Origin: a virus
Length of the DNA stretch: 64,000 nucleotides
IMG/VR virus record: IMGVR_UViG_3300010352_001169
Reading direction: 5' to 3' (one strand)
The position numbers and the translations under genes are program-made. The notes beneath the pieces are model-generated. The model saw only the letters and a program-made list of their open reading frames with translations. It had not been told where the DNA came from and ran no database searches. This document shows, in pieces, positions 1,396 to 59,733 of this stretch. How positions within the stretch are numbered: position 1 is the first letter of the stretch; each line of letters starts with the position of its first letter.

Positions 1396-1848
1396 ATGAA
1401 TAATCTTATATCTTATGATAATTTTTTAAATGAAGGTATTTTTAGATCGGATGAAGATGATATAGCTCAGAAATTATATGATGCTATAAGTAGAATGCCA
1501 AATAATAGAATAACTGGTGAATTGAGATCCGGTAGTAGTTTTTTTGAAATCGCTTTAAGAGTTGGTGAAAATGAAATTAAATCCAATGATCCTTATAGTG
1601 AAGAAAATTGGGGAAACGCTGTTGAAGTGAGATCGGATTATGAGGAAGGGGATGTCTATAGATCAATTATTCCAATTCCCATATATAGTTTAACGATTAA
1701 TGGTGAAGATTTAAAAGCTAGTTATAGAATGAGAATAAAAGTTCACAATTTGATGAAAAGTAAATTTAGAAGAAGCAGAAAAGCCGTTGAATTGGCAGCG
1801 GACGAAGAAAGAAAAAGAGCTTTAAGAGGAGCGATAGAAAATTTATGA
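1396..1848 (+). CDS. Hypothetical protein, N-terminal tag + DPYSEENW; paralog 1 of tandem array
   Basis: MNNLISYDNFLNEG start; overlaps next gene via ATGA. Confidence 0.8.
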   Translation: MNNLISYDNFLNEGIFRSDEDDIAQKLYDAISRMPNNRITGELRSGSSFFEIALRVGENEIKSNDPYSEENWGNAVEVRSDYEEGDVYRSIIPIPIYSLTINGEDLKASYRMRIKVHNLMKSKFRRSRKAVELAADEERKRALRGAIENL

Positions 1849-2261
1849 ACAATTTAAAAGCATATGGCGATTTTATAAATGAGGGATTGTTTAGTTCTAA
1901 ATACAAACATGTAGTAGATAAAATATATGATTATATAATGAAAATGGATCCTAGTAACATCACGATAGACAATCTCAGTTTTTATGATACAATTGTTTTT
2001 GTAATTAAAAAAGAGCAGAACAAAGATGTTGATCCTTATGGAGAAGAAACTTGGGATGAAGATGTTGAAATAAAATTATCAAAGGATTTTGTGGCGTGTG
2101 TAGATAGATATTACGACTACTATCTTTTTGTAAATGGAGATAAAGTAAAAACAACAAATCATGAAGCTGGAAAATTATATAGGGCGGCAATCAGAAGAAT
2201 TAAGAGAAAAGCACAAGACGAAAAAAATGCTAGAATAAATAAAGCAATAAAATATATATGA
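1845..2261 (+). CDS. Hypothetical protein, N-terminal tag + DPYGEETW; paralog 2
   Basis: MNNLKAYGDFINEGLFSS start; shared LxxNG(D/E) element. Confidence 0.8.
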   Translation: MNNLKAYGDFINEGLFSSKYKHVVDKIYDYIMKMDPSNITIDNLSFYDTIVFVIKKEQNKDVDPYGEETWDEDVEIKLSKDFVACVDRYYDYYLFVNGDKVKTTNHEAGKLYRAAIRRIKRKAQDEKNARINKAIKYI

Positions 2262-2692
2262 ACAATTTAATAACATATGATGAATTTTTAAATGAGGGAT
2301 TGTTTACTTCTTCGAGGTATGAAAAACTTTTGACGAAATTACGTGAACATATTGATAAAATGAATCCTGATGATATAGGAGGAAGAGGTCGGATTTTCAC
2401 GTTTACTATAAAAAAATCCGCTAAAAATCCAGATGACCCATACGGTGAGGAAAATTGGGGCGATGATATAAATATTCGAGTAGAATTAAGAGTCGACGAT
2501 GAGGGTGATAAAAAATATTCACTTTATATAAACGATGAAATAATAAATGTGTCTAAAGGTGAAGCTAAAAGTTTATGGAAATATATAAATCATAAGAAAG
2601 AATCTTATAATCGTCTTGCTGCAGCTAGAGCCAAAAAACAAAAAGATGTAGAAGAAGAAGAGCGTATAAAAAAATACTTAGATGCTTTATGA
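2258..2692 (+). CDS. Hypothetical protein, N-terminal tag + DPYGEENW; paralog 3
   Basis: MNNLITYDEFLNEGLF start. Confidence 0.8.
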   Translation: MNNLITYDEFLNEGLFTSSRYEKLLTKLREHIDKMNPDDIGGRGRIFTFTIKKSAKNPDDPYGEENWGDDINIRVELRVDDEGDKKYSLYINDEIINVSKGEAKSLWKYINHKKESYNRLAAARAKKQKDVEEEERIKKYLDAL

Positions 2693-3075
2693 AAAATTTA
2701 AAAACATATGACAATTTTATAAATGAAGGATTATTCTCTTCAAAATATAAAAAACTTTTGAATAAAATCCACGATTATATTATTGATATGGATTTAAATG
2801 ACATTAGACATGAAATTGATAGTTATCATTTCATTATGAAAAAAGATGATGAAAATATGAAAAATATAGAAGTGGTAATTATACGAAAAATTTCATTTGA
2901 ATTCTGCAAAGATTTTGATTATTCATTAAAAATAAATGGTGATGTAGTTGATGGTGTGAGTAATTATAGCGTTTGGAAATTATGGGATTTGATAGAAAAA
3001 TTAAAAAATAAAAGAGAAAAATTAAGAAATAGTGAAAATGATCCTTATGGTGAAGAGCAATGGGGAGATGATTAA
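2689..3075 (+). CDS. Hypothetical protein, N-terminal tag + C-terminal DPYGEEQW; paralog 4
   Basis: MKNLKTYDNFINEGLFSS start. Confidence 0.8.
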   Translation: MKNLKTYDNFINEGLFSSKYKKLLNKIHDYIIDMDLNDIRHEIDSYHFIMKKDDENMKNIEVVIIRKISFEFCKDFDYSLKINGDVVDGVSNYSVWKLWDLIEKLKNKREKLRNSENDPYGEEQWGDD

Positions 3076-3142
3076 ATAGAAGATTCGCTAATAGAACGAG
3101 AGATGAAAAAGAATTAAGAATAAAAAACATAGCTAATAAATT

Positions 3143-3724
3143 ATGAACAATCTATCAACATATGACAATTTCATAAATGAGGGTTTATTTTTTGGTAAAA
3201 AGAAACCAAAAGAAGAATACGAGCAAGACGACGATTTAATTTATCAGATAATTAATAAATTGGAGAAAGGAATTAATTTAAGATTTTTAAAATACGATTG
3301 TCAATATCATTATTCTGCTATAAAAACTAATGACAGGAGAGATATATTATCTTATACGTATAGAATTACTAAAAATAAATTAAATCCATTAGATCCATAT
3401 GGTGAGGAGCAGTGGGGGGATGAAACTGAAAATATAATGGAATTAGTAATTAAAATTAGTAGAGAAAGAGAAGATTCTGATAAAAATAAGAGAGTTATAA
3501 AAATAAATTCTGTCGAGCAAACAGTGAGTGATAAAGCTTTCTATAAATTATGGAATATATTTGAAAATGCAGAAAGTATAGAAAAAGAAAGATTAAAAAA
3601 AGAAGCTGAAAGAATAAGATTAGAAAAGCTAAAAGAAGAAGACGAAAGAAGGCGAGAGAGAAGCGCTGCTGTAAAATCTTCTTTTATGGATTTTCTAAAA
3701 GAATATCATAAAAATAGATTATAA
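3143..3724 (+). CDS. Hypothetical protein, N-terminal tag + DPYGEEQW; paralog 5
   Basis: MNNLSTYDNFINEGLF start; charged coiled C-terminus. Confidence 0.8.
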   Translation: MNNLSTYDNFINEGLFFGKKKPKEEYEQDDDLIYQIINKLEKGINLRFLKYDCQYHYSAIKTNDRRDILSYTYRITKNKLNPLDPYGEEQWGDETENIMELVIKISREREDSDKNKRVIKINSVEQTVSDKAFYKLWNIFENAESIEKERLKKEAERIRLEKLKEEDERRRERSAAVKSSFMDFLKEYHKNRL

Positions 3725-7098: not shown

Positions 7099-7986
7099 AT
7101 GGGTTATGGATATTATTCAATGGAAGAAAGAACAACCAGGGCTGATACCTTAGGTTATAAAACAAAATCCGCTCGTGAGATCTTCAAGGAAAGGCATCTA
7201 AACAAAGAAATGGATCCTAAAGATGTAAAAATCAGAGAATCGCGTGATTCTGATGATCATCCCGAGTCAATCTCTATTATCATCGCCCTTGACCACACCG
7301 GTTCAATGGGTTCGGTTCCACATCATTTAGTAAAGGAAGGTCTTCCTAATCTTATGGCTAAGATTATGGATAAGGGAATTAAAGATCCTCAGATTCTTTT
7401 CTTAGGAATTGGCGACCACAAATATGACAAAGCTCCTTTACAGATTGGTCAGTTTGAATCCAGTGATCCACTTATGGATAAATGGCTTACAGAAGTTTAT
7501 CTCGAAGGTGGCGGAGGAGGAAACGGTGGCGAAAGTTATCTTTTAGCTTGGTATTTCGCATCGCGTCATACAGCGATTGATTGTATGGAAAAACGTGGTA
7601 AAAAAGGTTATCTTATTACTATTGGTGATGAGCCTACTTTTAGAAGTATTCCCGAAGATGCCATTAAGAATATTATGGGTGAAGTAGCTCCACTTCCTTA
7701 TGATGAAGAAGATTGGACGCCAGATGATGAGCTTACCGCAGAAGATCTTTTAGCAGAAGCTAAAAGAAAATATGAAGTTTATCATATTCATATTCATCAG
7801 ACTAAACAGGGTCAGATGGAAAAGAATATCGATAGTTGGAAAGATCTTATAGGTGATAATCTAATTGTAGCTGAAGCTAAAGAAGATATTCCTGACATTA
7901 TCGCTGGTATTGTTTGTAACAATTTCGGTGAGATTAAATGGTATGGTAATGGAAAACTTGAAGAAGAAAAAGTTGTAACTCTTTAA
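7099..7986 (+). CDS. von Willebrand factor A (MIDAS) domain protein
   Basis: IIIALDHTGSMGS, EGGGGGNGGESY, LITIGDE; AGGAGG upstream. Confidence 0.8.
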   Translation: MGYGYYSMEERTTRADTLGYKTKSAREIFKERHLNKEMDPKDVKIRESRDSDDHPESISIIIALDHTGSMGSVPHHLVKEGLPNLMAKIMDKGIKDPQILFLGIGDHKYDKAPLQIGQFESSDPLMDKWLTEVYLEGGGGGNGGESYLLAWYFASRHTAIDCMEKRGKKGYLITIGDEPTFRSIPEDAIKNIMGEVAPLPYDEEDWTPDDELTAEDLLAEAKRKYEVYHIHIHQTKQGQMEKNIDSWKDLIGDNLIVAEAKEDIPDIIAGIVCNNFGEIKWYGNGKLEEEKVVTL

Positions 7987-14482: not shown

Positions 14483-15523
14483 ATGAAAACAATTGATGCG
14501 GATGTCTGGCGCACGGAAGTCGCCAATTCCATTAAGAACATGCAACAATTAAAAGAAAGATTAGAATTAAGAAAAGAAGAAAAAATAGAAAATGTAAAAA
14601 ATCTCCCAGTTAGGATCCCACCATATTTTTTGAAAGTAGTTGAAAGCAGTGATGCTATTAGAAAAACTATGGTCCCAACTGTCGATGAATTTAATGTCTC
14701 TGATGAAGAGAAAGAAGACCCCCTCTCTGAAGAGAAGTACAAGAAAACAGATTGTTTAGTTCATAAATATCCGAATCGTGTGTTATTTTTATGCAACACA
14801 CAATGTTTCGGTTTCTGTAGATACTGTACCAGATCAAGAATTGTAGGAAAAAATAAAAACTATACTAAAACTGATTGGGATAATGCTATAAATTATATAA
14901 AAGATCACAATGAAATTTTTGATGTTTTGTTGAGTGGTGGAGATCCATTTATGTTGAACGATGATAAAATAGAATATTTATTAAGTGAATTATCGAAAAT
15001 ATCTCATGTAAAAGTTATAAGGATCGGAACAAAAATGCCGGTTTTTCTTCCACAGAGGGCTAATGATAAGCTTATAAATATTCTAAAAAAATATAAACCG
15101 TATATTAATATACACGTAACACATCCATCTGAAATCACTAAAGAGTTTGTAGATTGTTGTAATAAATTATCTATTGATGCTAATTGTATACTAGGTTCTC
15201 AAACCGTTTTGTTAAAAGGAATAAACGATGACGCTAAAATATTACAAGAACTTTTTAATAAATTACTAGAAAATCGTGTCACTCCTTATTATTTATATCA
15301 AATGGATAGGATAATCGGTGGATCTCATTTTAGATGTGATTTAAATAAAATGATAGAGATTATGCATCAATTAATAGGTTGGAACTCAGGAAGAGCTATT
15401 CCAGAATTCGTTGTCGACTGCGAGATAGGTAAAACACCACTTCGATATGGTTATATAGAAAAGAAAGAAAACGACAAATATGAATTAAAAAATTTTGAGA
15501 AGAATACGTCTATAGAATATTAA
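14483..15523 (+). CDS. kamA: KamA-family radical SAM enzyme (lysine 2,3-aminomutase-like)
   Basis: CFGFCRYC, LLSGGDP, RIGTK, QTVLLKGIND, PYYLYQMD, GK at the PLP-lysine position. Confidence 0.85.
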   Translation: MKTIDADVWRTEVANSIKNMQQLKERLELRKEEKIENVKNLPVRIPPYFLKVVESSDAIRKTMVPTVDEFNVSDEEKEDPLSEEKYKKTDCLVHKYPNRVLFLCNTQCFGFCRYCTRSRIVGKNKNYTKTDWDNAINYIKDHNEIFDVLLSGGDPFMLNDDKIEYLLSELSKISHVKVIRIGTKMPVFLPQRANDKLINILKKYKPYINIHVTHPSEITKEFVDCCNKLSIDANCILGSQTVLLKGINDDAKILQELFNKLLENRVTPYYLYQMDRIIGGSHFRCDLNKMIEIMHQLIGWNSGRAIPEFVVDCEIGKTPLRYGYIEKKENDKYELKNFEKNTSIEY

Positions 15524-16330: not shown

Positions 16331-17355
16331 TATTGTTGAAGCAGAGGAGTTATTTTTTCAATTATTTTATCATATTCGCTATTTTTTAATTTGACAACTC
16401 TCTTTCCTATTGACATTTTTGGATATAAATTTAAAGGAATATTTTTTATCAACATTCTTTTTGTGTTAGTGGATATTATTAACTCAATCGGTTCTTCCCA
16501 TTGCTCTTCCCCTAAAGGATCATGTGGATTATTTTCATCGTCCATATTTATATTTATGTAATAAAAAGGACCATAGTCTCTTTCACTGTCTTTTTTTCTA
16601 TAATCCATCAAATAAAATTCAACATCTGTAGCTTCAATGATATTGGGCAGTCCTCTAAAATTATTTATTAATCTTACCTGAATGTCAGCGTTTTTTGCTT
16701 TTTTAAGAAACATTGTGAACAATTTTTTTGTTATAATACCTCTACTGAAAAATATGGTAATAAAAATTAAACATATCCCAGCGCTTATTAAAGTAAAAAA
16801 TTGTTCATTTAGATGGTCGGATTCAAATAAATCATTTTTTAAGGTTTCTTTCTTATTTCTTAGATCTATTATAGCTTGTTTCTTTTGTTCTATTTCTCTT
16901 CTTTTACGCTCTCTTTCAGCTATTCTTTTTTCTGCTTTATCGTCTCTTTTTCTTTGAGCCAATCTTCTTTTTCTTTCTCTTTCTCTTCTTTTTTCTGGAT
17001 TTTTGAACATGGATAATAAAAATAATTTTTGAGCGTACGGCACTTTCATTTTCATATCATTAACATAAAGATCTATTTTAATTTTCTTTTTCCATGCTAT
17101 CATATAAATATTAAAGATTTTAGGTGGGCCTCCAATTTCTTCTTCCCCATATGGATCATCTTTAGAAAATACTTGCTTTATTTTACGGAGTCTATATCTA
17201 TATGTATTTCTCCATCCGAGATCTTCACTATCTAAATCTTGAAAAACAAAATTAGTTCTTAGTTCATTTATTATTCTAGTAACTATTTTTATATCAAGAA
17301 TAGAATATTCCTCATTTATACTTTCAAAATTATCATAGGAATTCAAATATTCCAT
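16330..17355 (-). CDS. Two-module tagged protein with TM helix and two DPxGEE motifs
   Basis: MEYLNSYDNFESINEE start; DPYGEEEIG; internal HLNEQ then TM; DPLGEEQW. Confidence 0.75.
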   Translation of the reverse strand: MEYLNSYDNFESINEEYSILDIKIVTRIINELRTNFVFQDLDSEDLGWRNTYRYRLRKIKQVFSKDDPYGEEEIGGPPKIFNIYMIAWKKKIKIDLYVNDMKMKVPYAQKLFLLSMFKNPEKRRERERKRRLAQRKRDDKAEKRIAERERKRREIEQKKQAIIDLRNKKETLKNDLFESDHLNEQFFTLISAGICLIFITIFFSRGIITKKLFTMFLKKAKNADIQVRLINNFRGLPNIIEATDVEFYLMDYRKKDSERDYGPFYYININMDDENNPHDPLGEEQWEEPIELIISTNTKRMLIKNIPLNLYPKMSIGKRVVKLKNSEYDKIIEKITPLLQQ

Positions 17356-17386
17356 TATAAAATTTATTTTCTACTATATATAAAAA

Positions 17387-17653
17387 TTAAATTTCGAATT
17401 TTTCGAATAATTCTTTAACAGGAGGAAGCGCTTTAAATATTTTTTCTAAAAGATCATTTAAATGTTCATACTCATAAATTGTCTTTACTTTCAATATATC
17501 TAATAGTTTATCTTCAACAGTGAGGACATAGTTGCAGCCCCTATTAAACCAAAAGATCATTTGATATATTGTATCTTCTACATTTATAGATAATAAGATA
17601 GCCACGCCATCTTTAACTTTTCCGATATAATCTACAACAGATATACTGACCAT
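17387..17653 (-). CDS. Hypothetical protein
   Basis: 88-aa ORF with TAATATATA-like upstream element. Confidence 0.65.
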   Translation of the reverse strand: MVSISVVDYIGKVKDGVAILLSINVEDTIYQMIFWFNRGCNYVLTVEDKLLDILKVKTIYEYEHLNDLLEKIFKALPPVKELFEKFEI

Positions 17654-17711
17654 TTATGAGTTTGCTTTTTTAATATATATAAGAAAATTAAAGTTCGTTT
17701 TTTTTCTAACT

Positions 17712-18401: not shown

Positions 18402-18410
18402 AAAATAAAA

Positions 18411-19261: not shown

Positions 19262-19263
19262 AC

Positions 19264-19572
19264 ATGAAAAATTTAAAAAACAGAGACAAATTTTTATTCG
19301 AACAGAATAACGATCCTTTCAACGAAGAAAGAGAAGATGAGAATGATGTTACACAAGATGATGTAGCATGGGTTAGTGCTGATTGGAAAGATACAGAAGA
19401 ACTTATAGATGGTTTTAGAGAAGCCCTAGAAAAATTTGGGCTTCATATGTATGAAGATCCAGATTTTGATGACACTGACTCTTATGGATTTATAATATCC
19501 AAAACAGAGCTTTCTGACAATCAAATAGAAGCTTTATCCAGAGCGCACAATCAAGATTTTTTTGAAGATTGA
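19264..19572 (+). CDS. Acidic hypothetical tagged protein
   Basis: MKNLKNRDKFLFEQ start; degenerate DPFNEE. Confidence 0.7.
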   Translation: MKNLKNRDKFLFEQNNDPFNEEREDENDVTQDDVAWVSADWKDTEELIDGFREALEKFGLHMYEDPDFDDTDSYGFIISKTELSDNQIEALSRAHNQDFFED

Positions 19573-19643
19573 TAACATCATAATTTATTTAAACATTTCT
19601 AGTTGGTTATCATATATTATAATGATAACCAACTTTTTTATTC

Positions 19644-21527: not shown

Positions 21528-21706
21528 AATTTTTGGATTTTTTTTTAAATAATTAATTTATTGCTTTTTATATAAAGTTAAAAAATAAAAGTTTAATTTT
21601 TATTAAGATTGTATGAAAAAACAACATGTTTAAAATAAAAATATGTTGTTTTTTGTTTTTAAGACCACCTTTGTATAATATATACTCAAAAATAAGTTTT
21701 ATAAAT

Positions 21707-24712: not shown

Positions 24713-25088
24713 TTATATATATATACCGTGTTTAATCTTATTAAACACTATTGCGGTATTAGTAGGGTTAAATCCATCTACTTGGTGGGTTTGCGGCATC
24801 TGTATAGGTTTATCTTTCATTTTTTATATGTATATGGGTGATTGGATAGGAGAAAAAATAGAACAGCGTAAACGCCGCCGAGAAGCACGTGCACACCCAA
24901 GAATTATCTGGGAAAGAGCAGAGCAGCGCGAGGTAGGATTGGATGCATATCGTCTAATGTTAGAAAGACAGCGAAGAAATTTAGAAAAACTAATCCATGA
25001 ACAAGAAATGAAAGAAAGAGCATCCAGAACACAAGGACAGGTTATATCTCCAAAAGATCCTTATGGTGAAGAAGATTGGGAAAATTAA
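24676..25088 (+). CDS. Membrane protein ending in DPYGEEDW; frameshifted at a (TA)6 tract
   Basis: ATG 24676 gives MKKIFRQVVICLIIYI; removing one TA at 24714-24725 joins it to PCLILLNT... of ORF 24705-25088. Confidence 0.6.
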
Positions 25089-26217: not shown

Positions 26218-26624
26218 TCTTTCCATTCCTCCTCACCGTAAGGATCCAGCTTTATATTCTTTTCTGTTTCTTTGTCATACGGTCTAACATGGTGTTGATC
26301 TGCGTCCAATAAATCGCCATCGTCAAAACATATTCTATATTTTCCATCATCTCTCATACTAACAAATGTTGCTGTTTCTCCGTTGTGATCGGACTTAGGG
26401 TTTACATATGTAATTTTATCACCTTCTTTAAGTTTTTTCATTAAAAGATCGACTAAATCAGAAACATTATCTCTACGATTTCTTCTTTTTTCGCGATATT
26501 TTTCTAAATCGCCAAGCACCACTTGTTCTAAATCTCTTCTTTTTTCTTCTCTAATACGTTTTCTTTCAGCTCGTTCTTCTGGATCAAACCAACCGAATTC
26601 TTCGAAAGTTTTTAAATAAATCAT
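26214..26624 (-). CDS. Tagged protein with SH3/KOW-like domain and C-terminal DPYGEEEW
   Basis: MIYLKTFEEF; KEGDKITY...ATFVSMRDDGKYRICFD matches the C-terminus of 29820-32132. Confidence 0.75.
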   Translation of the reverse strand: MIYLKTFEEFGWFDPEERAERKRIREEKRRDLEQVVLGDLEKYREKRRNRRDNVSDLVDLLMKKLKEGDKITYVNPKSDHNGETATFVSMRDDGKYRICFDDGDLLDADQHHVRPYDKETEKNIKLDPYGEEEWKD

Positions 26625-27589: not shown

Positions 27590-28258
27590 TTAATTGTCTT
27601 TTATAAAATGATAAATTTGATCTACATAAGTTAATTCCGATCTAATATCAGTTCTCAAATCACCAGAATATATATGTTGTCTAAGCTCTTTTTCAAACAA
27701 ATAATCAATTTCATCCTTTGTCATCTGTTCCATTTTTTGAGTTTCATCGGGTGTCGCTAATCTTTTCTTTTTAAGATCTCCATAAAAATATACTATAAAA
27801 GGAGTGTGTGTTATTTCCCCTTTATCTCTTTTTTCTATGAATTTTTTTTGATATTCGCGATAAGCGTAGTGTTGATCACGTGGTAAAAATTCCAACATGT
27901 GTTTCAGACTTTCTTCATCATCCTTGATTTTTTCTTCTTTTGTTCTCTTATCTTCTAATTTTCTAAAATATCTTATATCGCCTATTAAATAATAATTTCC
28001 ACTATTACATTTGATAAAAACATCATAGATTGGTTTTTGACCAAAGTCACCTGTTCTATTTGTTAATACTTTATATAAATTTTCTTTGATCAGATCGTCT
28101 TTATTTATATCCCACTGCTCTTCACCATAAGGATCTTCTTCCGTTACCATTGTTTGCATATCAACATTTTTCTTATCTAAATCTTTCATAGATCTAATTC
28201 TCGATGGAAGTTCTTCCCTCCATTTTTTACTATCAAATTCTTCAAATATTATTATCAT
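27590..28258 (-). CDS. Hypothetical protein with DPYGEEQW
   Basis: Likely start MIIIIFEEF at 28258 within ORF 27590-28351. Confidence 0.7.
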   Translation of the reverse strand: MIIIFEEFDSKKWREELPSRIRSMKDLDKKNVDMQTMVTEEDPYGEEQWDINKDDLIKENLYKVLTNRTGDFGQKPIYDVFIKCNSGNYYLIGDIRYFRKLEDKRTKEEKIKDDEESLKHMLEFLPRDQHYAYREYQKKFIEKRDKGEITHTPFIVYFYGDLKKKRLATPDETQKMEQMTKDEIDYLFEKELRQHIYSGDLRTDIRSELTYVDQIYHFIKDN

Positions 28259-28378: not shown

Positions 28379-28948
28379 TCATGCTGGCTCTATATCTTTT
28401 TTATCTCTCAGACCAATAAAAGGTATATTTTCTGTGTGTTTATATTTTTTATTATATCTAATCTGATTTGCTTTTGTTATAATATCCATTTCATTATACC
28501 AATCTTCTTCACCATAAGGATCTTCTTTTTTCTCTTCATGAAAATATTTTTCAACATAGAAATCTTTTATCTTTTTATATAAAGATTTAGCTTCTAATCT
28601 ATATCTCTTACTAAGACTCGTATAAAGAATCCAAACCAAGAATAAAATGTACACCTCTTTATATGTCACTGGAGATATAAATATTTCTTTAGATATAGCC
28701 AAAGAAGCTAATATTGTATAAAACAATAAATTTTTCACAGGTGAGAAAAGTTTATCTATATTATTGGAAATCTTAGCTATAGCAATCAATTTTTCTTCAT
28801 CGGATAAGTTTTTTACTTTTTTTTCTGTATATTTTATAATAGGCCAACTTATAAATTCTGAAATTTTGTCGACAAAACAATCAGCTTTATCACCTATTTT
28901 ACCCCAGTTTATTTTTTCATTAATATAAATATCGAACTTTGTTATCAT
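28379..28948 (-). CDS. Tagged membrane protein with DPYGEEDW
   Basis: MITKFDIYINE start; two hydrophobic helices. Confidence 0.7.
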   Translation of the reverse strand: MITKFDIYINEKINWGKIGDKADCFVDKISEFISWPIIKYTEKKVKNLSDEEKLIAIAKISNNIDKLFSPVKNLLFYTILASLAISKEIFISPVTYKEVYILFLVWILYTSLSKRYRLEAKSLYKKIKDFYVEKYFHEEKKEDPYGEEDWYNEMDIITKANQIRYNKKYKHTENIPFIGLRDKKDIEPA

Positions 28949-33712: not shown

Positions 33713-34261
33713 ATGAAAATAAGAAATGGTTTTATAAGTAATAGCAGTAGCTCATCTTTCATTCTTGTGTACATACCAGATGACTTTGATTATGATTCAC
33801 ATGTAGAATATATGCTTGACAAATATCAAAAGAAAGGTCCTAAAAATTATGAACGTTTTAAAAAAGATATTGTTTTTTTCAAAAAGAGTGGAATAGATGA
33901 CTTCGTTAAAAAGGGAAGAATGGGTCAATTCGCAGTTGATGATCTAGCTTTTTTCTTAGAAGATTATGTTGTTTATCAAACTACATTAGATTATGAAGGA
34001 TATGACACCATTAAAAGAATTGATAAGAAATTTTTAGAAAAAATCGACAAAATGGCCGATTTATCAAAAAATAATATAGAAAAATATAAAGAAGTAGCAG
34101 CTTCTAAAAATAGAAAAAGACAATATCTAAAAGACAAAATGAAACTCTACGATCCATATGGTGAGGAAGAATGGGATGAAGATCTTGATAGTATAAAAGA
34201 TCCATTAGAAAGAGGATCGATTGATGAGTCTAATAGAATAAAAAAATTTAAAGAATTATGA
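33713..34261 (+). CDS. MKIRxGFxSNSSSSSF-family protein 1, with DPYGEEEW
   Basis: Conserved N-terminus; ends IDESNRIKKFKEL. Confidence 0.8.
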   Translation: MKIRNGFISNSSSSSFILVYIPDDFDYDSHVEYMLDKYQKKGPKNYERFKKDIVFFKKSGIDDFVKKGRMGQFAVDDLAFFLEDYVVYQTTLDYEGYDTIKRIDKKFLEKIDKMADLSKNNIEKYKEVAASKNRKRQYLKDKMKLYDPYGEEEWDEDLDSIKDPLERGSIDESNRIKKFKEL

Positions 34262-34782
34262 AAATAAGAACTGGTTTTGTTAGTAATAGTAGCGGTTCTA
34301 GTTTCGTTTTAGTGTATTTGCCAAAAGATTTTGACTTTGATATCGCTATGGAATCCTTTTTAGAAAAATACAAAGGAAATAAAAAGCACAATTATATGAT
34401 CAAAGAAATTGATGGATTGACGAAACACGATGTCGATAATTTTATAAAACATGGCATTTATCATCAAGGTGAGGATGATAATAATTTTTATTCATTAAGC
34501 GCATTTTTTAATGATTATACTGTTTTTGTTGCTTACGAGGCTTGTCTTGAAGAAGGTGGAATTATTAAATTAATAGATGATAGAATATTAGATAAATCAG
34601 TTGAAATTGATAATAAACATAGAGAAGATTGCATCAAATATAAAGATGCTGTAAAGGACAGAAAGATAAAAAGAGAAATTATAAAAGACAAAATGAAAGG
34701 AATCGATCCTTATGGCGAAGAAGAATGGGATGATGAAGATAATATTGTCGAATCCTATAGAATAAGAAGATTTAAAAAGTAA
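34258..34782 (+). CDS. MKIRxGFxSNSSxSSF-family protein 2, with DPYGEEEW
   Basis: Conserved N-terminus; ends IVESYRIRRFKK. Confidence 0.8.
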   Translation: MKIRTGFVSNSSGSSFVLVYLPKDFDFDIAMESFLEKYKGNKKHNYMIKEIDGLTKHDVDNFIKHGIYHQGEDDNNFYSLSAFFNDYTVFVAYEACLEEGGIIKLIDDRILDKSVEIDNKHREDCIKYKDAVKDRKIKREIIKDKMKGIDPYGEEEWDDEDNIVESYRIRRFKK

Positions 34783-34791
34783 TAATTAATT

Positions 34792-35286
34792 ATGAAAATA
34801 AGAACTGGTTTTGTAAGTAATAGTAGCTCAACAAGTTATGTGGTTTTTCTACCAAAAGATTTTGATTTAGAAGATTATATGGCAGAGTTCACTAACGAGC
34901 AACTTGAGCAAATGGGGAAATGGGCCGATTGTTCATTTGAAGAATTAATAGAAAGATCTCTTGCTGAATTTCAAAGAGCATTGGACGCTAGAGATTCATC
35001 AACATATCAATATGGTGATGATTATGGAATATTTGAATTCTTTGAAAAATTATTTGAACAATTAATTATATCTGCTGTTGAACAAGGTGGTGATGGTGAA
35101 GGAGTTATGAAATTTGTCAGACAAGAAGATCTTGAAAATAAAATAAAATACAAAGCAGATCCAGAAAAGAAAAAGAAAAGAGAAGCAAAAAAAGAAGAGT
35201 TGAAGAAAAAATATAAGGACGTAGACCCATACGGAGAGGAAAAATGGGAGGAAGAAAATATAATTAAAAGATTTAAAGATCTATGA
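34792..35286 (+). CDS. MKIRxGFxSNSSSTSY-family protein 3, with DPYGEEKW
   Basis: Conserved N-terminus; ends EEENIIKRFKDL. Confidence 0.8.
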   Translation: MKIRTGFVSNSSSTSYVVFLPKDFDLEDYMAEFTNEQLEQMGKWADCSFEELIERSLAEFQRALDARDSSTYQYGDDYGIFEFFEKLFEQLIISAVEQGGDGEGVMKFVRQEDLENKIKYKADPEKKKKREAKKEELKKKYKDVDPYGEEKWEEENIIKRFKDL

Positions 35287-49517: not shown

Positions 49518-50857
49518 TTCATCCTTCAATTTAAAATAACCCTCGGTGAAAAAAAGTGATTATTTTTATTTAATATATAAAAATAAAACGATTTAAATAT
49601 GGTATCTTTATGTTATGAATATAATAACAAATTAATAAAAACAAAAACAAATAGTTTTATTGATTATGACAATTTCAACACAGATAAAATTATATTTTCT
49701 ATGAGACAATCATTAATGAAAAAATTTAAAATAACATTAGAAGAATATTTACATAATATTGGATTTGAAGTTAAAAAATGTGGTTTTTGTGGAAGTTTTG
49801 CTAGGGCTAGTATATCAATTGATATAATAAAAATAAAAAACAGAAAGAAAATAATAATAAAGGATGTTCTATATCCTTATGGGTATTATTGCAAAGGACA
49901 AAATAAAAAATGTGATGGAAGAAATTATAATCCAAATTCAATTACATTTGTAAGCAAGACAAAAGGAGTTAAAGAAAATGAAGCTATAAGCATAATTCAT
50001 AATAGAAATAAAAGTCCATTTTATTTAGAAAATCACAAAAATTATAACGATTATAAAAATTATCAATCATTAGAGAATAGATTGGATGATGAAAAATATT
50101 CATCTTTTATAGAAAATTTAAAAAAATCAAAAACCATTGAATATTATGTAGATAGATTTGGGGAAAAAGACGGGAAAATAATATGGGATAATATATGTAA
50201 GAAAAAAGATAGTATGTCTTTAGATTTTTTTCTAAAAAAGAATAATTTCAATTATGAAAAATCAATAGTGGAATATAAAAATAGATTAAAATCGTCTTGT
50301 CCTAATACTAATTTCGGTCATTATTCACCGGCATCTTTTGATTTTTTCAATAAAATCGTCGATATATTAAAAATAAAAAAATATATGTATGGGAAAAACG
50401 AACTTATATTAGAGTATTTTAACGAAAATAATATCAAGAAAAAATTCTATTATGATTTTGTAGATTTAGATAACAACATTATTATTGAATATAACGGATT
50501 AGTATGGCATCCAAATAAAGAAAAAATGACAGAAAATCAATGGAATAACTGGTATTTTCCTTATGACAAATCAATAAAGGCCGAAGATATAATCAATAAA
50601 GACAAATTAAAAGAAAAAATAGCCTTGGAAAATAAATATAAATTTATTTCTATATGGAATAGTGACGATGAAAATGAAAATTTAGAAAAAATTGTTTCGC
50701 TATATAAAAATTTAAATATTATAAAATGATTAAAAATTATTTAGAATTGATTGAAATAGACAGAATTGATTTCACAGACGAATATGATAATATGGTAGAT
50801 ATATCAATAGATATAGACGAAACATTTTGTTTATCAAATGGAATTGTTTCACACAAT
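49005..50857 (+). mobile_element. Split intein (N-half 49005-49517, C-half 50726-50857) with intervening endonuclease
   Basis: Cys1 after TEGD; C-half ends NGIVSHN followed by Ser+1 (SAM); halves in different ORFs and frames. Confidence 0.85.
49599..50729 (+). mobile_element. Vsr/DUF559-like homing endonuclease between the intein halves
   Basis: CxxC zinc motifs; YDFVDLDNNIIIEYNGLVWH...DKLK...ISIW; own TAATATATA element at about 49575. Confidence 0.75.
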
Positions 50858-52843
50858 TCAGCAATGAGCTCGGTTCAAGCTGGTATGGCAGCTGTGGGTA
50901 AAGAGAGAGAATATATCGGTGGTTTTCCTCTACGTGGAAAACCTTTGAATGTTAGAGAAGCTGATTTATCAAGACTCAGAGAAAATGAGGAAATTAAAAA
51001 CATAATTACTATATTGGGATTAGAATATGGGAAACATTATACAGACATAAATAAACTGAGATATGGAAAAGTGGTTTTAATGGCTGACGCGGATTGTGAT
51101 GGAGATCACATCAGAGGTCTTCTTATGAACCTCTTTGATGCTTGTTGGCCAGAATTGCTTAAAATGAACTTCATTTACGATTTTATCACTCCAATTATTA
51201 AAGCAACAAAAGGCAAAGTAGTTAAATACTATTACAAGTTAGATGAATATAAAAAAGATAAAGATAAATTACACGGTTATGATGTTAAATGGATAAAGGG
51301 TTTGGGAACCGTTGAACCAACTGAAATGAAAGAGTTTTTCAAAAAAATTGATAAACATCTTATTCGTTTTCATTATGATAAACCCGAGACACCCGAGCTT
51401 TTCGATATGCTTTTCAATGGTAAAAGAGCAGATGATAGAAAAGAATGGTTAAAAACCTACTCTCCAGTTGATTTTATTGATAAGTTTAGTGTGAAACAGA
51501 CTTATGATAAATTTATTAACAATGAATATATTGAATTTTCAATGTATAACAATGTAAGACAAATTCAAAATGTTATTGACGGATTTAAACCAGGTCAAAG
51601 AAAAGCCTTTTTTACATTAATCAAGAAAAATATTAAAAATGAAATTAAAGTAAGTTCACTATCAGGAGCTGTTATTGAAACCGCAGCGTATCATCACGGC
51701 AACACAAGTCTTGAAGAAGCTGTTGTTGGAATGGCGCAGGAATTTGTTGGAACCAACAATATAAATTTATTATCTCCGAAAGGGCAATTCGGATCACGTA
51801 TAAAAGGTGGAGCTGATAGTGCATCGCCAAGATATATCTTCACACGATTGAGCGATTTAACTCCATATATTTTTAGAAAAGAAGATAACGATATTTTAGA
51901 TTATTTGGATGACGATGGCTCGCCAATTGAACCTAAATATTATGTTCCAATTATACCTATGGTTTTGGTGAACGGAGCTTTTGGTGTAGGTTCTGGATAT
52001 TCTTCTAATGTTCCAATGTTTAATCCTTTGGATATTATTAATTGTTTAGTCAATAAACTACAAGGAAAAAAATACAAGGGATTACAACCTTTTTATAAAA
52101 AATTCAAAGGTGATATAATTTTAGATGAAGAAAACAAAAGATATATCACACGCGGAATTTATGATAAACCAAATGCTAATGTGATAAAAATTACAGAACT
52201 TCCAATAGGAATGTGGAATGATAAATATTTTGAAAAATTAGATAAATTAGTTGAAAGTAAAAAAATAAAAGATTATTCAAAGAATTGCACCGATACAGAA
52301 ATTGACATTAAACTTATTCTTACAAAAGAGAATATGGATGAAATGTTTGATGGAAATAATGTTTATAAGAAATTGAATCTCGAGACTTACATATCCATAG
52401 ATAATATGCATTTATTTGACGCTAATTGTCAAATAAAAAAATACAAAGATCAATATGAAATTCTAGATGATTTTTATAAAATAAGAATAGAATATTATAC
52501 TCGAAGAAAATTACATCAATTAGCTGAAATGGAAAGAGAGATAAAAATAGCTCATCAGAGAATAAAATTCTTAAAAAATATTATAGATGGAGATATCATT
52601 GTTTATAAAAAGAGTAAAGACATTCTTGAAATAGAGTTAGAAAAACACAACTTCGAAAGAGTTGACGACTCTTATAATTATTTATTAAATATGTCTATAT
52701 CATCTTTAACCAAAGAAAAATTATTAGACATAAAAGACGAATATGATAAATTAAGAGAACAATATAAGAAACTTGAACATACAAGTGAATCTGATATCTG
52801 GTTAGAAGAATTAAAAGAATTAAAATCTAAAATCAAATTTTAA
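50726..52843 (+). CDS. C-half intein + type IIA topoisomerase TOPRIM and breakage-reunion domains
   Basis: FPLRGKPLN, MADADCDGDHI, KGLGT, DGFKPGQRK, YHHG, ASPRYIFT. Confidence 0.92.
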   Translation: MIKNYLELIEIDRIDFTDEYDNMVDISIDIDETFCLSNGIVSHNSAMSSVQAGMAAVGKEREYIGGFPLRGKPLNVREADLSRLRENEEIKNIITILGLEYGKHYTDINKLRYGKVVLMADADCDGDHIRGLLMNLFDACWPELLKMNFIYDFITPIIKATKGKVVKYYYKLDEYKKDKDKLHGYDVKWIKGLGTVEPTEMKEFFKKIDKHLIRFHYDKPETPELFDMLFNGKRADDRKEWLKTYSPVDFIDKFSVKQTYDKFINNEYIEFSMYNNVRQIQNVIDGFKPGQRKAFFTLIKKNIKNEIKVSSLSGAVIETAAYHHGNTSLEEAVVGMAQEFVGTNNINLLSPKGQFGSRIKGGADSASPRYIFTRLSDLTPYIFRKEDNDILDYLDDDGSPIEPKYYVPIIPMVLVNGAFGVGSGYSSNVPMFNPLDIINCLVNKLQGKKYKGLQPFYKKFKGDIILDEENKRYITRGIYDKPNANVIKITELPIGMWNDKYFEKLDKLVESKKIKDYSKNCTDTEIDIKLILTKENMDEMFDGNNVYKKLNLETYISIDNMHLFDANCQIKKYKDQYEILDDFYKIRIEYYTRRKLHQLAEMEREIKIAHQRIKFLKNIIDGDIIVYKKSKDILEIELEKHNFERVDDSYNYLLNMSISSLTKEKLLDIKDEYDKLREQYKKLEHTSESDIWLEELKELKSKIKF

Positions 52844-52878: not shown

Positions 52879-53340
52879 ATGAAACTTAAAAGATTTAATA
52901 ACTTAAACGAATCGAAAGGATTTGATTTCAGAAGAGTTGGTGGAGCAAAGTTAGATTGCATGTATTTACATCTAATTTATGAAGGCGGTGACGCTGATAC
53001 CAGGCATCCAGAGAAAATAAAATTACCCTGGAAATATTCAGAATATAAAGATCATATAGAAGAGCTTAATGAATTAATCGATAAATATAAAAGACTCGAA
53101 AAAGTTCTTCATTGTGGTAGTTATGGTGGTAGAATTTGCTCAGAACGCATCAATGGACAACATAAGTATGTAATAAAAGCATATAGAAGTCCAGATGTTG
53201 AAATAGAAGATGATTTACAAGACCTTATAGATGATGTTCCAAATGATCCTCAAACAGATTATGACACAAAATGTTATCTTGGTCATATGACACTGATAGC
53301 ATACGATCAAGAAGGAAATAAATTAGAGTCTTATATTTAA
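52879..53340 (+). CDS. Hypothetical tagged protein
   Basis: MKLKRFNNLNES start. Confidence 0.7.
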   Translation: MKLKRFNNLNESKGFDFRRVGGAKLDCMYLHLIYEGGDADTRHPEKIKLPWKYSEYKDHIEELNELIDKYKRLEKVLHCGSYGGRICSERINGQHKYVIKAYRSPDVEIEDDLQDLIDDVPNDPQTDYDTKCYLGHMTLIAYDQEGNKLESYI

Positions 53341-53356
53341 AAATAAATTTAAAAAA

Positions 53357-53659
53357 ATAGAAAAATATATTAAAAAATATCGCATATTTGAGCAACAAAA
53401 TCAAGACATAGATCCTTACGGCGAAGAAAGCGGATTACAAAAAGGAAGTTTGGATTATCAACCCGGCGGAGATATTATCGGTTTTCTAAGAAATCTAGAA
53501 AATCCAGATATAACAAATGCTTTAGATAAGTTGTTAGCGTCTGATGATTTAGACGAAAGAATAGATTTGGCTGAAGATATATTAGGATATGTAGATGAAA
53601 ATTTTGAAGAAATCTATGATTTGGTAGAGGACGATATAAAACAATTGACTCTAGATTAA
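53357..53659 (+). CDS. Acidic tagged protein with DPYGEE; apparent ATA start
   Basis: Frame open from ATA 53357: IEKYIKKYRIFEQQNQDIDPYGEESG, continuous with ORF 53450-53659. Confidence 0.55.
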   Translation: MEKYIKKYRIFEQQNQDIDPYGEESGLQKGSLDYQPGGDIIGFLRNLENPDITNALDKLLASDDLDERIDLAEDILGYVDENFEEIYDLVEDDIKQLTLD

Positions 53660-54450: not shown

Positions 54451-54846
54451 TTATTCATCATCATTTTTTAATTTTATTACACTATTAGTTCTAATCGGCA
54501 ATATATATTTTTTATTTTTTTCATCTATCAAGTATATAATGTTCAGAATATAACCATCTCCAGAATCGCATTCCACATCTTCAATCTTTATGCATACTTC
54601 TTTACCATCTTTTTTAAAAGTGGCGAAATTTTCTCCTGGTATGAAATATGCAGTTTTTCCAACAAATTTATCTTTTAAGAATCGTTCGAATTTTCTTTTT
54701 GAATTAATTCTCGTTAATGGAATTACATCGAGATTCATCATTAACTCAAAAACATTGATAATTTCATCGTATTCATTCCAATCTTCTTCACCGTAAGGAT
54801 CAATGTCATAATCAAGTTTTTCAAATATTTTGAATTTAGTTACCAT
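54451..54846 (-). CDS. Tagged protein with DPYGEEDW
   Basis: Likely start MVTKFKIFE at 54846. Confidence 0.7.
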   Translation of the reverse strand: MVTKFKIFEKLDYDIDPYGEEDWNEYDEIINVFELMMNLDVIPLTRINSKRKFERFLKDKFVGKTAYFIPGENFATFKKDGKEVCIKIEDVECDSGDGYILNIIYLIDEKNKKYILPIRTNSVIKLKNDDE

Positions 54847-54894: not shown

Positions 54895-55311
54895 ATGATT
54901 ATGAAACAAATAAGTTATTTTAAATTTTTAAAAGCTCATCCCGAGTTTATGGATGTTGATGATACAGAAGATGTTAAATTATTTCTTTTAGATTATGTTA
55001 AAAAAAGAGTTTATAGAAAAAAGGAGGGAATTTGTGAACTATTGCCGATGAAAGGTCAGGGTTATAGAAAAAATACAGATGATTTTAAGGATAGTAAAAT
55101 AATAAAAGATCATTCTATTTACAGAATAATGTTTAGAAAATATAAATTGATGACTATTTATTTTTTAAAAAATGAAACATGTGTGATAGTCAATAATCAT
55201 ACACAAGAAGATAAATGGGTCACTAATAATGTAAAATGTAGATATTTATCTAAAGAAGAAATAAAAAATATAAAACGAACAATATTAATAGATAATTTAA
55301 TAAAATTGTAA
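54895..55311 (+). CDS. Hypothetical protein
   Basis: 138-aa ORF ending in a RTILIDNL tail. Confidence 0.65.
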   Translation: MIMKQISYFKFLKAHPEFMDVDDTEDVKLFLLDYVKKRVYRKKEGICELLPMKGQGYRKNTDDFKDSKIIKDHSIYRIMFRKYKLMTIYFLKNETCVIVNNHTQEDKWVTNNVKCRYLSKEEIKNIKRTILIDNLIKL

Positions 55312-55893: not shown

Positions 55894-56157
55894 ATGAATG
55901 AAGGTTTAGTTTGTCCGAATTGTGGATCGGGAGGAGGCCGTCACTGGTTCCAGATAGAAAAAGAAAATTCCACATCGAATAAATCATGGGGTCATGATGA
56001 ACTAATGAAGGTTTTGCACGATTTTAATGGTAATGCAATAGGAATTTATTGTGGAAATTGCGGATATACAATAAAAAATACAAATGAATTATTGAATTCA
56101 GATGAATTTGTAAACCATAAAAGAACAAAAACAATAGATAAAATGTTAAATAAATAA
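55894..56157 (+). CDS. Zinc-ribbon protein
   Basis: CPNCG and CGNCG. Confidence 0.65.
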   Translation: MNEGLVCPNCGSGGGRHWFQIEKENSTSNKSWGHDELMKVLHDFNGNAIGIYCGNCGYTIKNTNELLNSDEFVNHKRTKTIDKMLNK

Positions 56158-58203: not shown

Positions 58204-59031
58204 TTATATTCTATATCTAGCGGTATTAATTACCTCATTTCTAAGATAATGTAATTTTTTCTTAAAATATTCTTCATTACATTCTTCCAATTTAACTTCA
58301 TTGGTCTGGTTGAAATCATCAAATTGTAAGAAAGTGCCATTTCTTTCATCATCGTCTTCATTTTCGTGTTGATAAACGTAAAAATTTCCAGGCATACGGT
58401 TGAAAGAAATGTTGAAAGAAATATATGACATTCCTCTATTGTAAAAATTTATATTTTCAATACCATTTATATTTTTGAGAATTTCATAGTATTCTTCTAA
58501 TGAATAATATTTTGGTTCCTCCCATTTTTCCTCCCCATACGGATCTATATCGTTGTTAAAATTTTCGCTAGTTTCCCAATCATCTTCAAATTTACCACCT
58601 TTATACCATTTAATAGTTTCTTTTGGTGTTGCTTTTGTTGGAGCATCATAATAACCAATACCATTAGTCATATCAACAACATAATCTTTTTTTGTTCCTT
58701 TTAACATAAATTGCCACCCCATAAAAGCATTAGGATCTTCTTTCCAATATCCACCCAAAGATATTCTTTCTTTTTTAATAAACCTTCCATTTTTTATATC
58801 ATAAAAAACAACCTTTTTTCCTATTGTATTATCTATTAGATCTAAAACATATTTTCTTGATTCTTCATTGGATACGTTTTTCATAAGTCCTATTATGAAG
58901 TTATCTCCATAATAACACGTATTAAAATCTTCACCCTTTAAATTTAATAATTTTTTAGGTTCTGGTTCTTCAAGAGAAGAATGTGACAGTTTTCTTAATT
59001 CTTCTGTTATAAAACTTTCGAAAGATTTCAT
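58204..59031 (-). CDS. Tagged protein with IKWYKGGKF and DPYGEEKW motifs
   Basis: MKSFESFITEE start. Confidence 0.72.
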   Translation of the reverse strand: MKSFESFITEELRKLSHSSLEEPEPKKLLNLKGEDFNTCYYGDNFIIGLMKNVSNEESRKYVLDLIDNTIGKKVVFYDIKNGRFIKKERISLGGYWKEDPNAFMGWQFMLKGTKKDYVVDMTNGIGYYDAPTKATPKETIKWYKGGKFEDDWETSENFNNDIDPYGEEKWEEPKYYSLEEYYEILKNINGIENINFYNRGMSYISFNISFNRMPGNFYVYQHENEDDDERNGTFLQFDDFNQTNEVKLEECNEEYFKKKLHYLRNEVINTARYRI

Positions 59032-59378
59032 AATTTTCCTATTTCAGCTTTGGCATCTCCAATTCCTTTGACTTCAGCTATAATATTTCTTACTTTTATA
59101 AGACCCTCTTTGTCCATATCTTTTAACATATCGGCCATTTTCTTTACCGTGTCGGGAAACTTAGTAACGGATTCGTTGTTATAATTTGATAAATCTCCGC
59201 TTTTTTCTTCTTGAGATGTTTGTTGTGGTTGTTCGGTTTCAGTCGTTCCACTTTGAGCAGGTTGAGCTGCTGGCTGTGCTGCTGGTTCTGGAGCAGGAGC
59301 TGGGGCAGGAGCTGGTGCTGGGGCAGGAGCTGGAGTGTCAGCTTCATTTAGAAAATCTATGTATTTTTTTATTTTCAT
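59028..59378 (-). CDS. Tagged protein with Pro-Ala repeat linker
   Basis: MKIKKYIDFLNEA then (PA)n, PAAQ repeats (about 59255-59336). Confidence 0.72.
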   Translation of the reverse strand: MKIKKYIDFLNEADTPAPAPAPAPAPAPAPEPAAQPAAQPAQSGTTETEQPQQTSQEEKSGDLSNYNNESVTKFPDTVKKMADMLKDMDKEGLIKVRNIIAEVKGIGDAKAEIGKL

Positions 59379-59394
59379 ATTTTTATATATTATT

Positions 59395-59733
59395 TTATGA
59401 TTCCCATCTTTCTTCACCGTGTGGGTCCAGATCATTGAAAACTCTTTTGTGTTCTTCTTGTTTTGTTAAATTGTAAGGCGAAACCCACCAATCTACCTCC
59501 GATATATAATATGTCATTCTTTTATTATATCTATAATAATCACATTCGCCCTTTTCGTTTCTATCTGTCCAAATAGTATGATATCCTTTATCTGATATTG
59601 TTCCTTTTAGATTATTAAATTCTTCTTCATCAACAACACCATTAACTATAACTTCATCGCCTATATTAAAAATATCATCAACGTCTTTTTGATCGTTTTG
59701 TTCTTTTATATATGAATAGAATTTTTTCATCAT
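59395..59733 (-). CDS. Tagged SH3-like protein ending DPHGEERW
   Basis: MKKFYSYIKEQ; FNIGDEVIVNG. Confidence 0.7.
   Translation of the reverse strand: MMKKFYSYIKEQNDQKDVDDIFNIGDEVIVNGVVDEEEFNNLKGTISDKGYHTIWTDRNEKGECDYYRYNKRMTYYISEVDWWVSPYNLTKQEEHKRVFNDLDPHGEERWES

Follow-up and report, generated by a model that had tools for sequence, protein, structure and literature searches.

DPYGEExW, a short peptide motif shared by many protein families in one sublineage of huge phages

A recurring peptide in a viral contig

The DNA analysed here (the window) is a 64,000-nucleotide stretch of the IMG/VR virus record IMGVR_UViG_3300010352_001169 and represents bases 43390-107389 of a 116,659 bp viral contig with 29% GC. 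It encodes a split type II topoisomerase, pieces of a family B polymerase, an SbcC-like ATPase, a T4-type terminase domain and S1-domain proteins. Scattered among these genes are open reading frames (ORFs) that share a short peptide, DPYGEExW, and that we refer to as carriers. A six-frame scan of the window found 22 DPxxEE matches, of which 21 have the form D-P-(Y/L/H)-(G/S)-E-E, one more than the 20 counted in an initial annotation made from the sequence alone; 17 are exact DPYGEE copies, and 18 have a W two residues later, as that annotation had reported. It also described copies on both strands and at N-terminal, internal and C-terminal positions of their proteins, which the scan bore out: all copies are in frame within long ORFs and lie on the strand of the gene (Table 1). 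Its description of the carriers as "otherwise unrelated ORFs" was overstated, as the 20 carrier ORFs group into about 12 families. Over the whole contig there are 32 copies in 27 of approximately 155 genes, including a 732 amino acid (aa) protein with three.

This frequency is far from what composition would give. When residues were shuffled within every ORF of 80 aa or more (500 shuffles), DPYGEE appeared on average 0.002 times and at most once, compared with the 17 exact copies found, and the loose pattern D-P-(Y/L/H)-(G/S)-E-E is expected only 0.012 times. An unbiased search for gapped words (five fixed positions of eight, N-termini excluded) ranked DP..EE.W first, with 22 genes against 0.006 expected, and the same search ranked it first in a complete 243 kb relative of this phage. 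A weight matrix for which only two other genomes served as training data found 25 sites here and none in shuffled sequences. The extended consensus is [DE]-[IVL]-D-P-Y-G-E-E-x-W-[EDG]-[ED], with variable flanks beyond the core. With seven fixed positions in an eight-residue core, or about 11-12 residues in the extended form, the element is within the length range of short linear motifs (SLiMs; 3-12 residues). DPYGEExW is most likely a portable SLiM under protein-level selection. The literature searched holds no account of it, text matches to DPYGEE being unrelated eukaryotic ones only, and a literature search on SLiMs in huge phages found nothing.

Conservation, relocation and turnover among carriers

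Similarity between carrier families is limited to the motif plus or minus 10 aa. One family consists of five tandem paralogues (1396-3724) and the N-terminal half of ORF 16330-17355, another of three tandem SNSSS ORFs (33713-35286), and the carriers at 45755 and 46425 form a pair in which one member is a duplicate remnant. The family of ORF 54451-54846 has at least nine paralogues in the 243 kb relative. Searches of Pfam and PHROGs with the 20 carriers were almost entirely blank, and 7-mer words upstream of carriers, considered as possible traces of a shared late promoter, were uninformative in this AT-rich DNA.

Within the first family the motif has moved. The loop copy was lost from ORF 2689-3075 by a precise deletion, and a new copy is found at the extreme C-terminus instead; elsewhere in the family the motif is changed by one residue (DPYDEENW), has decayed (DPLGYTDW) or has lost its W. 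Homologues found with queries in which the motif was masked keep it in 9 of 12 cases, and eight non-carriers have motif-bearing homologues. Gain, loss and relocation between homologues are typical of SLiM plasticity, and occurrence in about 12 families with two different predicted folds indicates independence from any one protein context. The portability and position independence proposed in the initial annotation are thus supported by relocation within a paralogue family and by turnover between homologues.

Conservation between orthologues, which that annotation had made a test of its proposal, is also evident. SNSSS orthologues of 42-60% identity keep the motif. A homologue search of 5.8 billion proteins with an SNSSS carrier returned only four, which made deep alignments impossible. 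Likewise, 20 modules composed of a small barrel, a basic helix and the motif are only 17-39% identical, and their sole invariant columns are the D, P, E, E and W of the motif. This module (a small beta-barrel with hGDxVxxxG..., a basic helix ending ...RLKHMDI, then DPYGEExW) is found in ORF 59395-59733 of the window, recurs at 112680-113474 of the contig, and occurs as six tandem repeats in a 673 aa protein of the 243 kb relative (77009-79030).

Table 1. Copies of DPYGEExW and related sequences in the window (positions are those of the window)
Sequence	Position	Strand	Context
DPYSEENW	1588..1611	+	ORF 1396-1848, five-paralogue family, N-tagged; internal loop copy
DPYGEETW	2031..2054	+	ORF 1845-2261; predicted flexible 55-73 loop between two beta-strands
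DPYGEENW	2435..2458	+	ORF 2258-2692; loop copy
DPYGEEQW	3040..3063	+	ORF 2689-3075; extreme C-terminus, loop copy precisely deleted (relocation)
DPYGEEQW	3392..3415	+	ORF 3143-3724; loop copy
PYDEEDW	7696..7716	+	ORF 7099-7986; degenerate, DPYDEE.W variant occurs in homologues elsewhere
DPLSEEKY	14717..14740	+	ORF 14483-15523, KamA-like radical SAM; no W, probable false positive
DPLGEEQW	16498..16521	-	ORF 16330-17355; second copy (aa 279), past hydrophobic segment
DPYGEEEI	17134..17157	-	ORF 16330-17355; aa 67, W lost, loop position homologous to five-paralogue family
DPFNEERE	19312..19335	+	ORF 19264-19572; doubtful or decayed
DPYGEEDW	25056..25079	+	ORF 24705/24828-25088, no N-tag; C-terminal
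DPYGEEEW	26223..26246	-	ORF 26214-26624, N-tagged, weak Tudor-like match; C-terminal
DPYGEEQW	28112..28135	-	ORF 27590-28351; near N-terminus
DPYGEEDW	28499..28522	-	ORF 28379-28948, N-tagged
DPYGEEEW	34151..34174	+	ORF 33713-34261, SNSSS family; invariant in orthologues of 42-60% identity
DPYGEEEW	34705..34728	+	ORF 34258-34782, SNSSS family
DPYGEEKW	35224..35247	+	ORF 34792-35286, SNSSS family; followed by tag-like ...IIKRFKDL tail
DPYGEEQW	45860..45883	-	ORF 45755-46423, N-tagged
DPYGEEQW	46515..46538	-	ORF 46425-46562, 45 aa remnant; 22 residues identical to the 45755-46423 copy (recent duplication)
DPYGEESG	53411..53434	+	ORF 53327-53659; W lost, probably decaying
DPYGEEDW	54778..54801	-	ORF 54451-54846; aa 16, directly after N-tag MVTKFKIFEKL
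DPYGEEKW	58522..58545	-	ORF 58204-59031, N-tagged
DPHGEERW	59404..59427	-	ORF 59395-59733, N-tag, small beta-barrel, basic helix, motif; C-terminal

The match at 14717 is probably a false positive and no part of this system, as it lacks the W and lies in a KamA-like radical SAM enzyme. That enzyme has Radical_SAM and LAM_C domains and is 61% identical to its counterpart in the 243 kb relative.

Codon usage at the motif

The initial annotation took synonymous codon variation as a sign that selection acts on the peptide. This is correct for D, Y and E, whose codons at the motif follow genome usage, but Pro is encoded preferentially by CCT (p=5e-4) and Gly by GGT (p=4e-3), which suggests some DNA-level relatedness or constraint. 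All four Pro codons, all four Gly codons and both codons each of D, Y and E occur across the copies. The varied codons and the genome-like usage for D, Y and E therefore argue for selection on the peptide, with a trace of shared DNA ancestry.

Exposure and structural context

Display on exposed, flexible segments is supported by AlphaFold2 (AF2) models, charged flanks and a bias to protein ends. In the model of ORF 1845-2261 (mean predicted local distance difference test score, pLDDT, 76.8) confidence is low only in the N-terminal tag, discussed below, and in the loop of residues 55-73 that holds the motif. In ORF 59395-59733 the barrel is predicted at pLDDT 70-83, and the N-terminal tag and the C-terminal motif at 34-56. 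A motif pLDDT below 56 beside domains of 70-92 suggests accessibility, to a moderate degree given the shallow alignments. Foldseek searches of PDB with both models returned nothing significant, the barrel having only weak Tudor-, chromo- and PWWP-like rows.

Flanks of the motif are more charged than random positions of the same proteins (charged fraction 0.44 versus 0.31, p=5e-11) and also more hydrophilic. Copies no more than six residues from a stop codon number 11 in the 243 kb genome, compared with 1.3 expected, and five in this contig, compared with 1.2 expected. In LR756501, a 735 kb relative, 40 of 106 copies are C-terminal; the extreme C-terminal share is 30-38% in the two complete relatives and 19% in this contig.

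Distribution among phages and cellular genomes

LR756501 is a phage of the Mahaphage clade with a predicted Bacteroidetes host (Al-Shayeb et al. 2020; PMC7162821). Relatives of the contig carry a gp23-type major capsid protein (MCP; PF07068, E=6e-25), and the MCPs of LR756501 and the complete 243 kb relative share 85% identity. Adjacent to the MCP gene is an ORF of 811-817 aa with a weak gp21-like Peptidase_S77 match (E ~1e-5, below the cut-off). A T4-type head module (gp23 MCP and gp21 protease) is thus present in the clade, the protease match being weak.

The scan of related phages proposed in the initial annotation revealed a sharp boundary. LR756501 has 109 DPYGEE-coding sites and four IMG/VR relatives have 25-38 each, and a reversed-pattern control gave no sites in these five genomes. 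There are also none in LR745206, LR756502 and LR756504 (634-642 kb), whose MCPs are approximately 50% identical, none in LR756500 (462 kb) and Lak-C1, and none in T4, PAU, PTm1 and MA9V-2. Exact, gapped and weight-matrix searches of the sister LR756502 found no variant "dialect" of the motif. Within the lineage, carriers make up 9-17% of proteins. At least 109 IMG/VR stretches hold the pattern, and the loci listed contain 252 copies in 850 kb.

In 596 Gbp of bacterial and archaeal genomes there are 72 matches, all single, where approximately 70 are expected by chance (a rough estimate). About 20 of these, roughly a quarter of all, are one orthologous protein of Lactobacillaceae and some Candidate Phyla Radiation bacteria with the sequence ...IEDPYGEEDW, which we take to be enolase (SIEDPFxxDDW element); about five others are beta-propeller-like repeats. 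Host mimicry was ruled out, since cellular genomes have only single matches at chance level. Because the motif is present in one phage sublineage, absent from its sisters and at chance level in cells, it is an innovation of one Mahaphage sublineage (the LR756501 lineage, which includes this contig) and not a host feature.

Three near-identical 3.3 kb contigs with 36% GC, found in Bacteroidetes/Bacteroidales bins of lake metagenome-assembled genomes, each contain an ORF of 100 aa whose product ends in ...IDPYGEEDWEN. These contigs are probably mis-binned fragments of this phage lineage, in agreement with the host predicted for LR756501.

An N-terminal tag resembling the T4 capsid targeting sequence

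Many proteins of this phage begin with M-x(1-5)-[KT]-[YF]-x-x-[FY]-[IL]-x-E (the N-tag). Using a hidden Markov model (HMM) built on these N-termini, with a threshold of at least 6 bits, we detected the N-tag on 43 of 155 contig N-termini and in 16 of 1277 internal control segments. Examples in the part of the window from 1396 to 63173 are at 1396, 1845, 17712, 29820-32132, 41073-42221, 42212-42643 and 59773-60846. The N-tag resembles the capsid targeting sequence (CTS) of T4, MKTYQEFIAE (PMC8442874), which guides proteins into the scaffolding core before gp21 cleaves it off (PMC5694885). The T4 CTS scores 12.3 bits with the N-tag HMM, and among 265 T4 ORFs only gp61.1, IpIII and IpII reach 10 bits, with IpI ranking eighth. 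The top match, above IpIII and IpII, is gp61.1 (AF158101, 18966-19130), a hypothetical protein of 54 aa that adjoins the primase gene and starts MKTFKEFIKED; judged by its sequence, it may be an unrecognised CTS-bearing protein.

The initial annotation considered DPYGEExW to be separate from this N-tag. The two are distinct: the motif is not CTS-like in sequence and mostly not N-terminal, whereas the N-tag is both. It also lacks the (I/L)-x-E site of the prohead protease, with no aliphatic residue at P3 (Y-G-E or G-E-E). Moreover, motif-free LR756502 has the N-tag on 115 of 580 genes (~20%), in the dialect MKHLKxYxIFES, so the N-tag predates the motif and can be separated from it. Their occurrence is nevertheless linked, carriers being five- to eightfold enriched in the N-tag. 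The odds ratio of the association is 7.7 in this contig (p=1.6e-5), 5.1 in the 243 kb relative (p=5e-5) and 4.7 in LR756501 (p=2.4e-9), and each of the eight non-carriers whose homologues have the motif bears the N-tag. In 9% of copies the motif comes immediately after the N-tag. Tag-like elements downstream of the motif are not generally enriched (1.9% versus 1.6%); apart from the SNSSS family, a single protein has one. By analogy with T4, many carriers are probably capsid-internal or ejected proteins.

Candidate partners encoded by the phage

A minimal SET-domain protein of 132 aa (32206-32604, + strand; PF00856, 55.5 bits, E=9e-15) drew attention as a possible partner. Its counterparts in the 243 kb relative and in LR756501 (735 kb) are 72-77% identical to it; it is absent from four motif-free huge phages, and so tracks the motif across seven genomes. 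Its gene heads a same-strand run in which it is followed by a SPASM-like gene (32607-33674) and three DPYGEE carriers; in the 243 kb relative the six-copy carrier adjoins the SET gene. Within 29820-33674, DNA-level similarity to LR756501 is found only at this gene. A NUDIX gene used as a control (23018-23542) has the same phyletic pattern, and in all 94 genes are conserved in motif-bearing genomes and absent from LR756502. The co-occurrence thus reflects a single event of shared ancestry, and we downgraded the SET protein as a specific co-occurring partner.

Hsp70 was ruled out as a clade-specific partner, being present also in the motif-free sisters. The phage encodes an Hsp70/DnaK (contig 18506-20377, E=1e-247, ending ...VEYEEVK), GroES (window 62432-62707) and GroEL (63177-64000+; Cpn60, E=2e-42). 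At 17165-18478 of the contig is a DPYGEE carrier of 437 aa that has a zinc finger of the DnaJ type (CXXCXGXG). LR756501 has a small (178 aa) second gp21-like paralogue (11386-11787; Peptidase_S77, weak) that ends in DPYGEENWSE and was not found in the 243 kb relative.

A proposed docking motif within the CTS-tagged protein class

Selection on the peptide, relocation, turnover and placement on exposed segments fit a docking signal. We favour the explanation, to which we assign a probability of roughly 55%, that DPYGEExW is a docking motif specific to this lineage, recognised by a single shared partner and acting mainly within the class of CTS-tagged proteins. The motif, which arose in the LR756501 sublineage of Mahaphages, would dock many unrelated proteins onto the same partner, which is probably encoded by the phage. 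A partner from the host is less likely because cells make no use of the motif and because it appears abruptly in a single phage sublineage. The motif could serve to sort or anchor capsid-internal (ejected) proteins or to recruit them later, and such a setting seems most likely because carriers are enriched in the CTS-like tag and the clade has a T4-type head module. The prohead protease would then remove the N-tag, and DPYGEExW, with no (I/L)-x-E context, would probably stay on the mature protein. Both single-partner binding and the capsid or ejection setting are what we infer from this combination of features.

Several results weigh against a docking motif of this kind. Between a third and half of the carriers have no recognisable N-tag. 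Neither the MCP nor the protease/scaffold ORF bears the motif, and there are no carriers within the structural module of the 243 kb genome, so that any link to the virion of these uncultured phages is indirect. Phyletic profiling with the 94 genes singled out no receptor. The CCT/GGT skew implies that similarity between copies is in part due to shared DNA ancestry, and the low pLDDT at the motif may partly reflect the shallowness of the AF2 alignments, which comprise 8-20 sequences.

A more far-reaching form of the docking proposal, which we regard as possible and advance tentatively, is that this lineage, to which the largest known phage genome belongs, has evolved a second, position-independent peptide code on top of the CTS-like tag. 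In this view one lineage-specific receptor would read DPYGEExW, and the motif would mark approximately 100 different proteins per genome for capsid packaging, retention or post-ejection recruitment. If true, this would be a proteome-scale sorting system without a described counterpart in bacterial viruses.

Alternative explanations

The alternative with most in its favour, although unlikely, is that DPYGEE is a processing site, cut within or just after the peptide by a gp21-like prohead protease or another phage protease that frees polyprotein modules or trims tails. Glu at P1 is shared with T4 gp21 and phiKZ-type sites, and G-E-E fits the phiKZ pattern S/A/G-x-E (PMC5694885). Three to six evenly spaced copies separate repeated barrel modules, the 9% of copies that follow the N-tag lie at residues 12-26 as at a propeptide junction, and the small gp21-like paralogue of LR756501 itself ends in the motif. 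Eight invariant residues around a scissile bond, however, far exceed the three-residue motifs of T4 and phiKZ proteases, and the N-tag already supplies a T4-type (I/L)-x-E. In addition, sister phages with the same MCP family and the N-tag have no motif, the small paralogue is missing from the complete 243 kb genome, and the MCP is without a copy. Cleavage at the 30-38% of copies in the two complete relatives (19% here) that are only 2-6 residues away from the stop would trim next to nothing, and a move from a mid-domain loop to a C-terminus is hard to reconcile with processing. G-E-E is formally of phiKZ type, but the conservation spans eight residues and 19-38% of copies are extreme C-terminal. 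Slightly less probable again is a sticker without any receptor, an acidic-aromatic turn that would attach either to a cation or to other carriers, through their basic helices or DNA-binding surfaces, and so promote co-assembly, for example into a capsid inner body or a condensate. A basic helix (...RLKHMDI) does stand just before the acidic motif, often in multivalent tandem arrays, the flanks are highly charged, and the same word in cellular proteins would form a strand-end to helix-start or hairpin-turn element. Seven strictly invariant positions are more suggestive of a stereospecific pocket than of loose electrostatics, though; many copies are without a basic helix, and AF2 gives no confident intramolecular docking on the adjacent barrel.

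We consider it improbable that the motif recruits an enzyme or chaperone or marks a modification site, for example a SET methyltransferase acting on an upstream lysine-rich stretch, or the phage Hsp70 or GroEL. The SET gene is found in the motif-bearing genomes (this contig, the 243 kb relative and LR756501), is lacking in four motif-free relatives and adjoins carriers, some of which have Tudor- or chromo-like barrels (weak matches only); the phage also encodes Hsp70, GroEL, GroES and a carrier with a DnaJ-type zinc finger. The NUDIX control and the 94 genes nevertheless share the SET pattern, no lysine is fixed relative to the motif, and motif-free sisters also have Hsp70. An acidic peptide is moreover not a typical Hsp70 client. 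Least probable of all, and in our view very unlikely, is that the element acts primarily as DNA, in the form of a short cassette or a recombination hotspot that duplication and microhomology have spread, with the peptide as a by-product. The CCT/GGT skew would fit such an element, as would the exact recurrence of the commonest 18-mer in many copies and the identity of the 45755 and 46425 carriers around the motif. All synonymous codons are used, however, frame and strand always match the gene, and the peptide is invariant at a background identity of 17-39%. Conservation covers no more than about 24-33 nt, which vary synonymously and have neither a flanking repeat nor a palindrome. The motif thus does not resemble inserts of the Rickettsia palindromic element type, in which palindromic DNA of about 100-150 bp is conserved and inserted in frame.

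Comparison with known systems

One parallel to a docking motif of this kind is the T4 CTS of IpI-III, a short peptide on unrelated proteins of a T4-type head system that share one destination, and carriers here are enriched in a CTS-like tag (PMC8442874, PMC5694885). DPYGEExW differs from it in sequence, in being position-independent (19-38% of copies at the extreme C-terminus) and in its restriction to one sublineage. Encapsulin cargo-loading peptides, which are short and mostly C-terminal, attach cargo to the inner face of an HK97-fold shell. They are similar in that a tag of about 10 residues occurs on unrelated proteins, often C-terminally on a flexible linker, in an HK97-fold shell system; they are Gly/Ser/Leu-rich and serve few cargos, whereas DPYGEExW is acidic-aromatic, often internal or multi-copy, and present on approximately 10% of the proteome. 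The DP[FW] and FxDxF adaptor-ear motifs of eukaryotic endocytic proteins are SLiMs that likewise are short, disordered and multi-copy, with fast gain and loss and an Asp-Pro-aromatic core, but they belong to unrelated machinery and partner domains, and DPYGEExW is longer and far stricter. The presumed enolase element, ...SIEDP(F/Y)x(E/Q)(E/D)DW, is nearly the same word, and its likely structural role suggests that such a word can adopt a strand-end to helix-start conformation. It is presumably a buried part of one enzyme fold, present once per genome, and indicates neither homology nor mimicry. Acidic tails of single-stranded DNA-binding proteins (...DDDIPF in E. coli SSB; the T4 gp32 tail bound by Dda, PDB 8s9i) share the acidic and aromatic character of a flexible tail, which in their case recruits proteins to a hub; there, one hub carries the tail and has many readers, whereas here there are many carriers and no restriction to the C-terminus. 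As a targeting or docking peptide, DPYGEExW is unusual in its strictness, position independence and proteome coverage.

Huge phages encode hundreds of small proteins annotated without a function, and we know of no account of how these are organised. DPYGEExW defines a coherent and experimentally tractable class among such proteins and predicts a single receptor. Identifying it would reveal the way in which megaphages sort or deploy their large cargo of proteins, and would also date an innovation to one branch between two sequenced clades. The motif might also provide a compact, position-independent tag for loading large phage capsids, a use for which the T4 CTS already serves, and its sequence offers an easy way to recognise metagenomic fragments of this lineage and mis-binned contigs.

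Other features of the window

A third portable tag, ...N-x-[KR]-R-T-x-x-I-D-x-[MIL]-[LI], is C-terminal in five contig proteins, with 0.1 expected by shuffling. These are encoded at 21626-22873, 54895-55311, 55894-56157 and 60758-61114 of the window and at 11500-11700 of the contig. The same tag is found in nine proteins of LR756501 and in 19 within 400 kb of motif-free LR756502, nearly all of them with a C-terminal position, and one protein that carries it has a terminase domain.

Two separate ORFs encode the split type II topoisomerase, one its GyrB-ATPase part (47739-49517) and the other its Toprim and GyrA part (50726-52843), with an unannotated ORF of 376 aa (49599-50729) between them.

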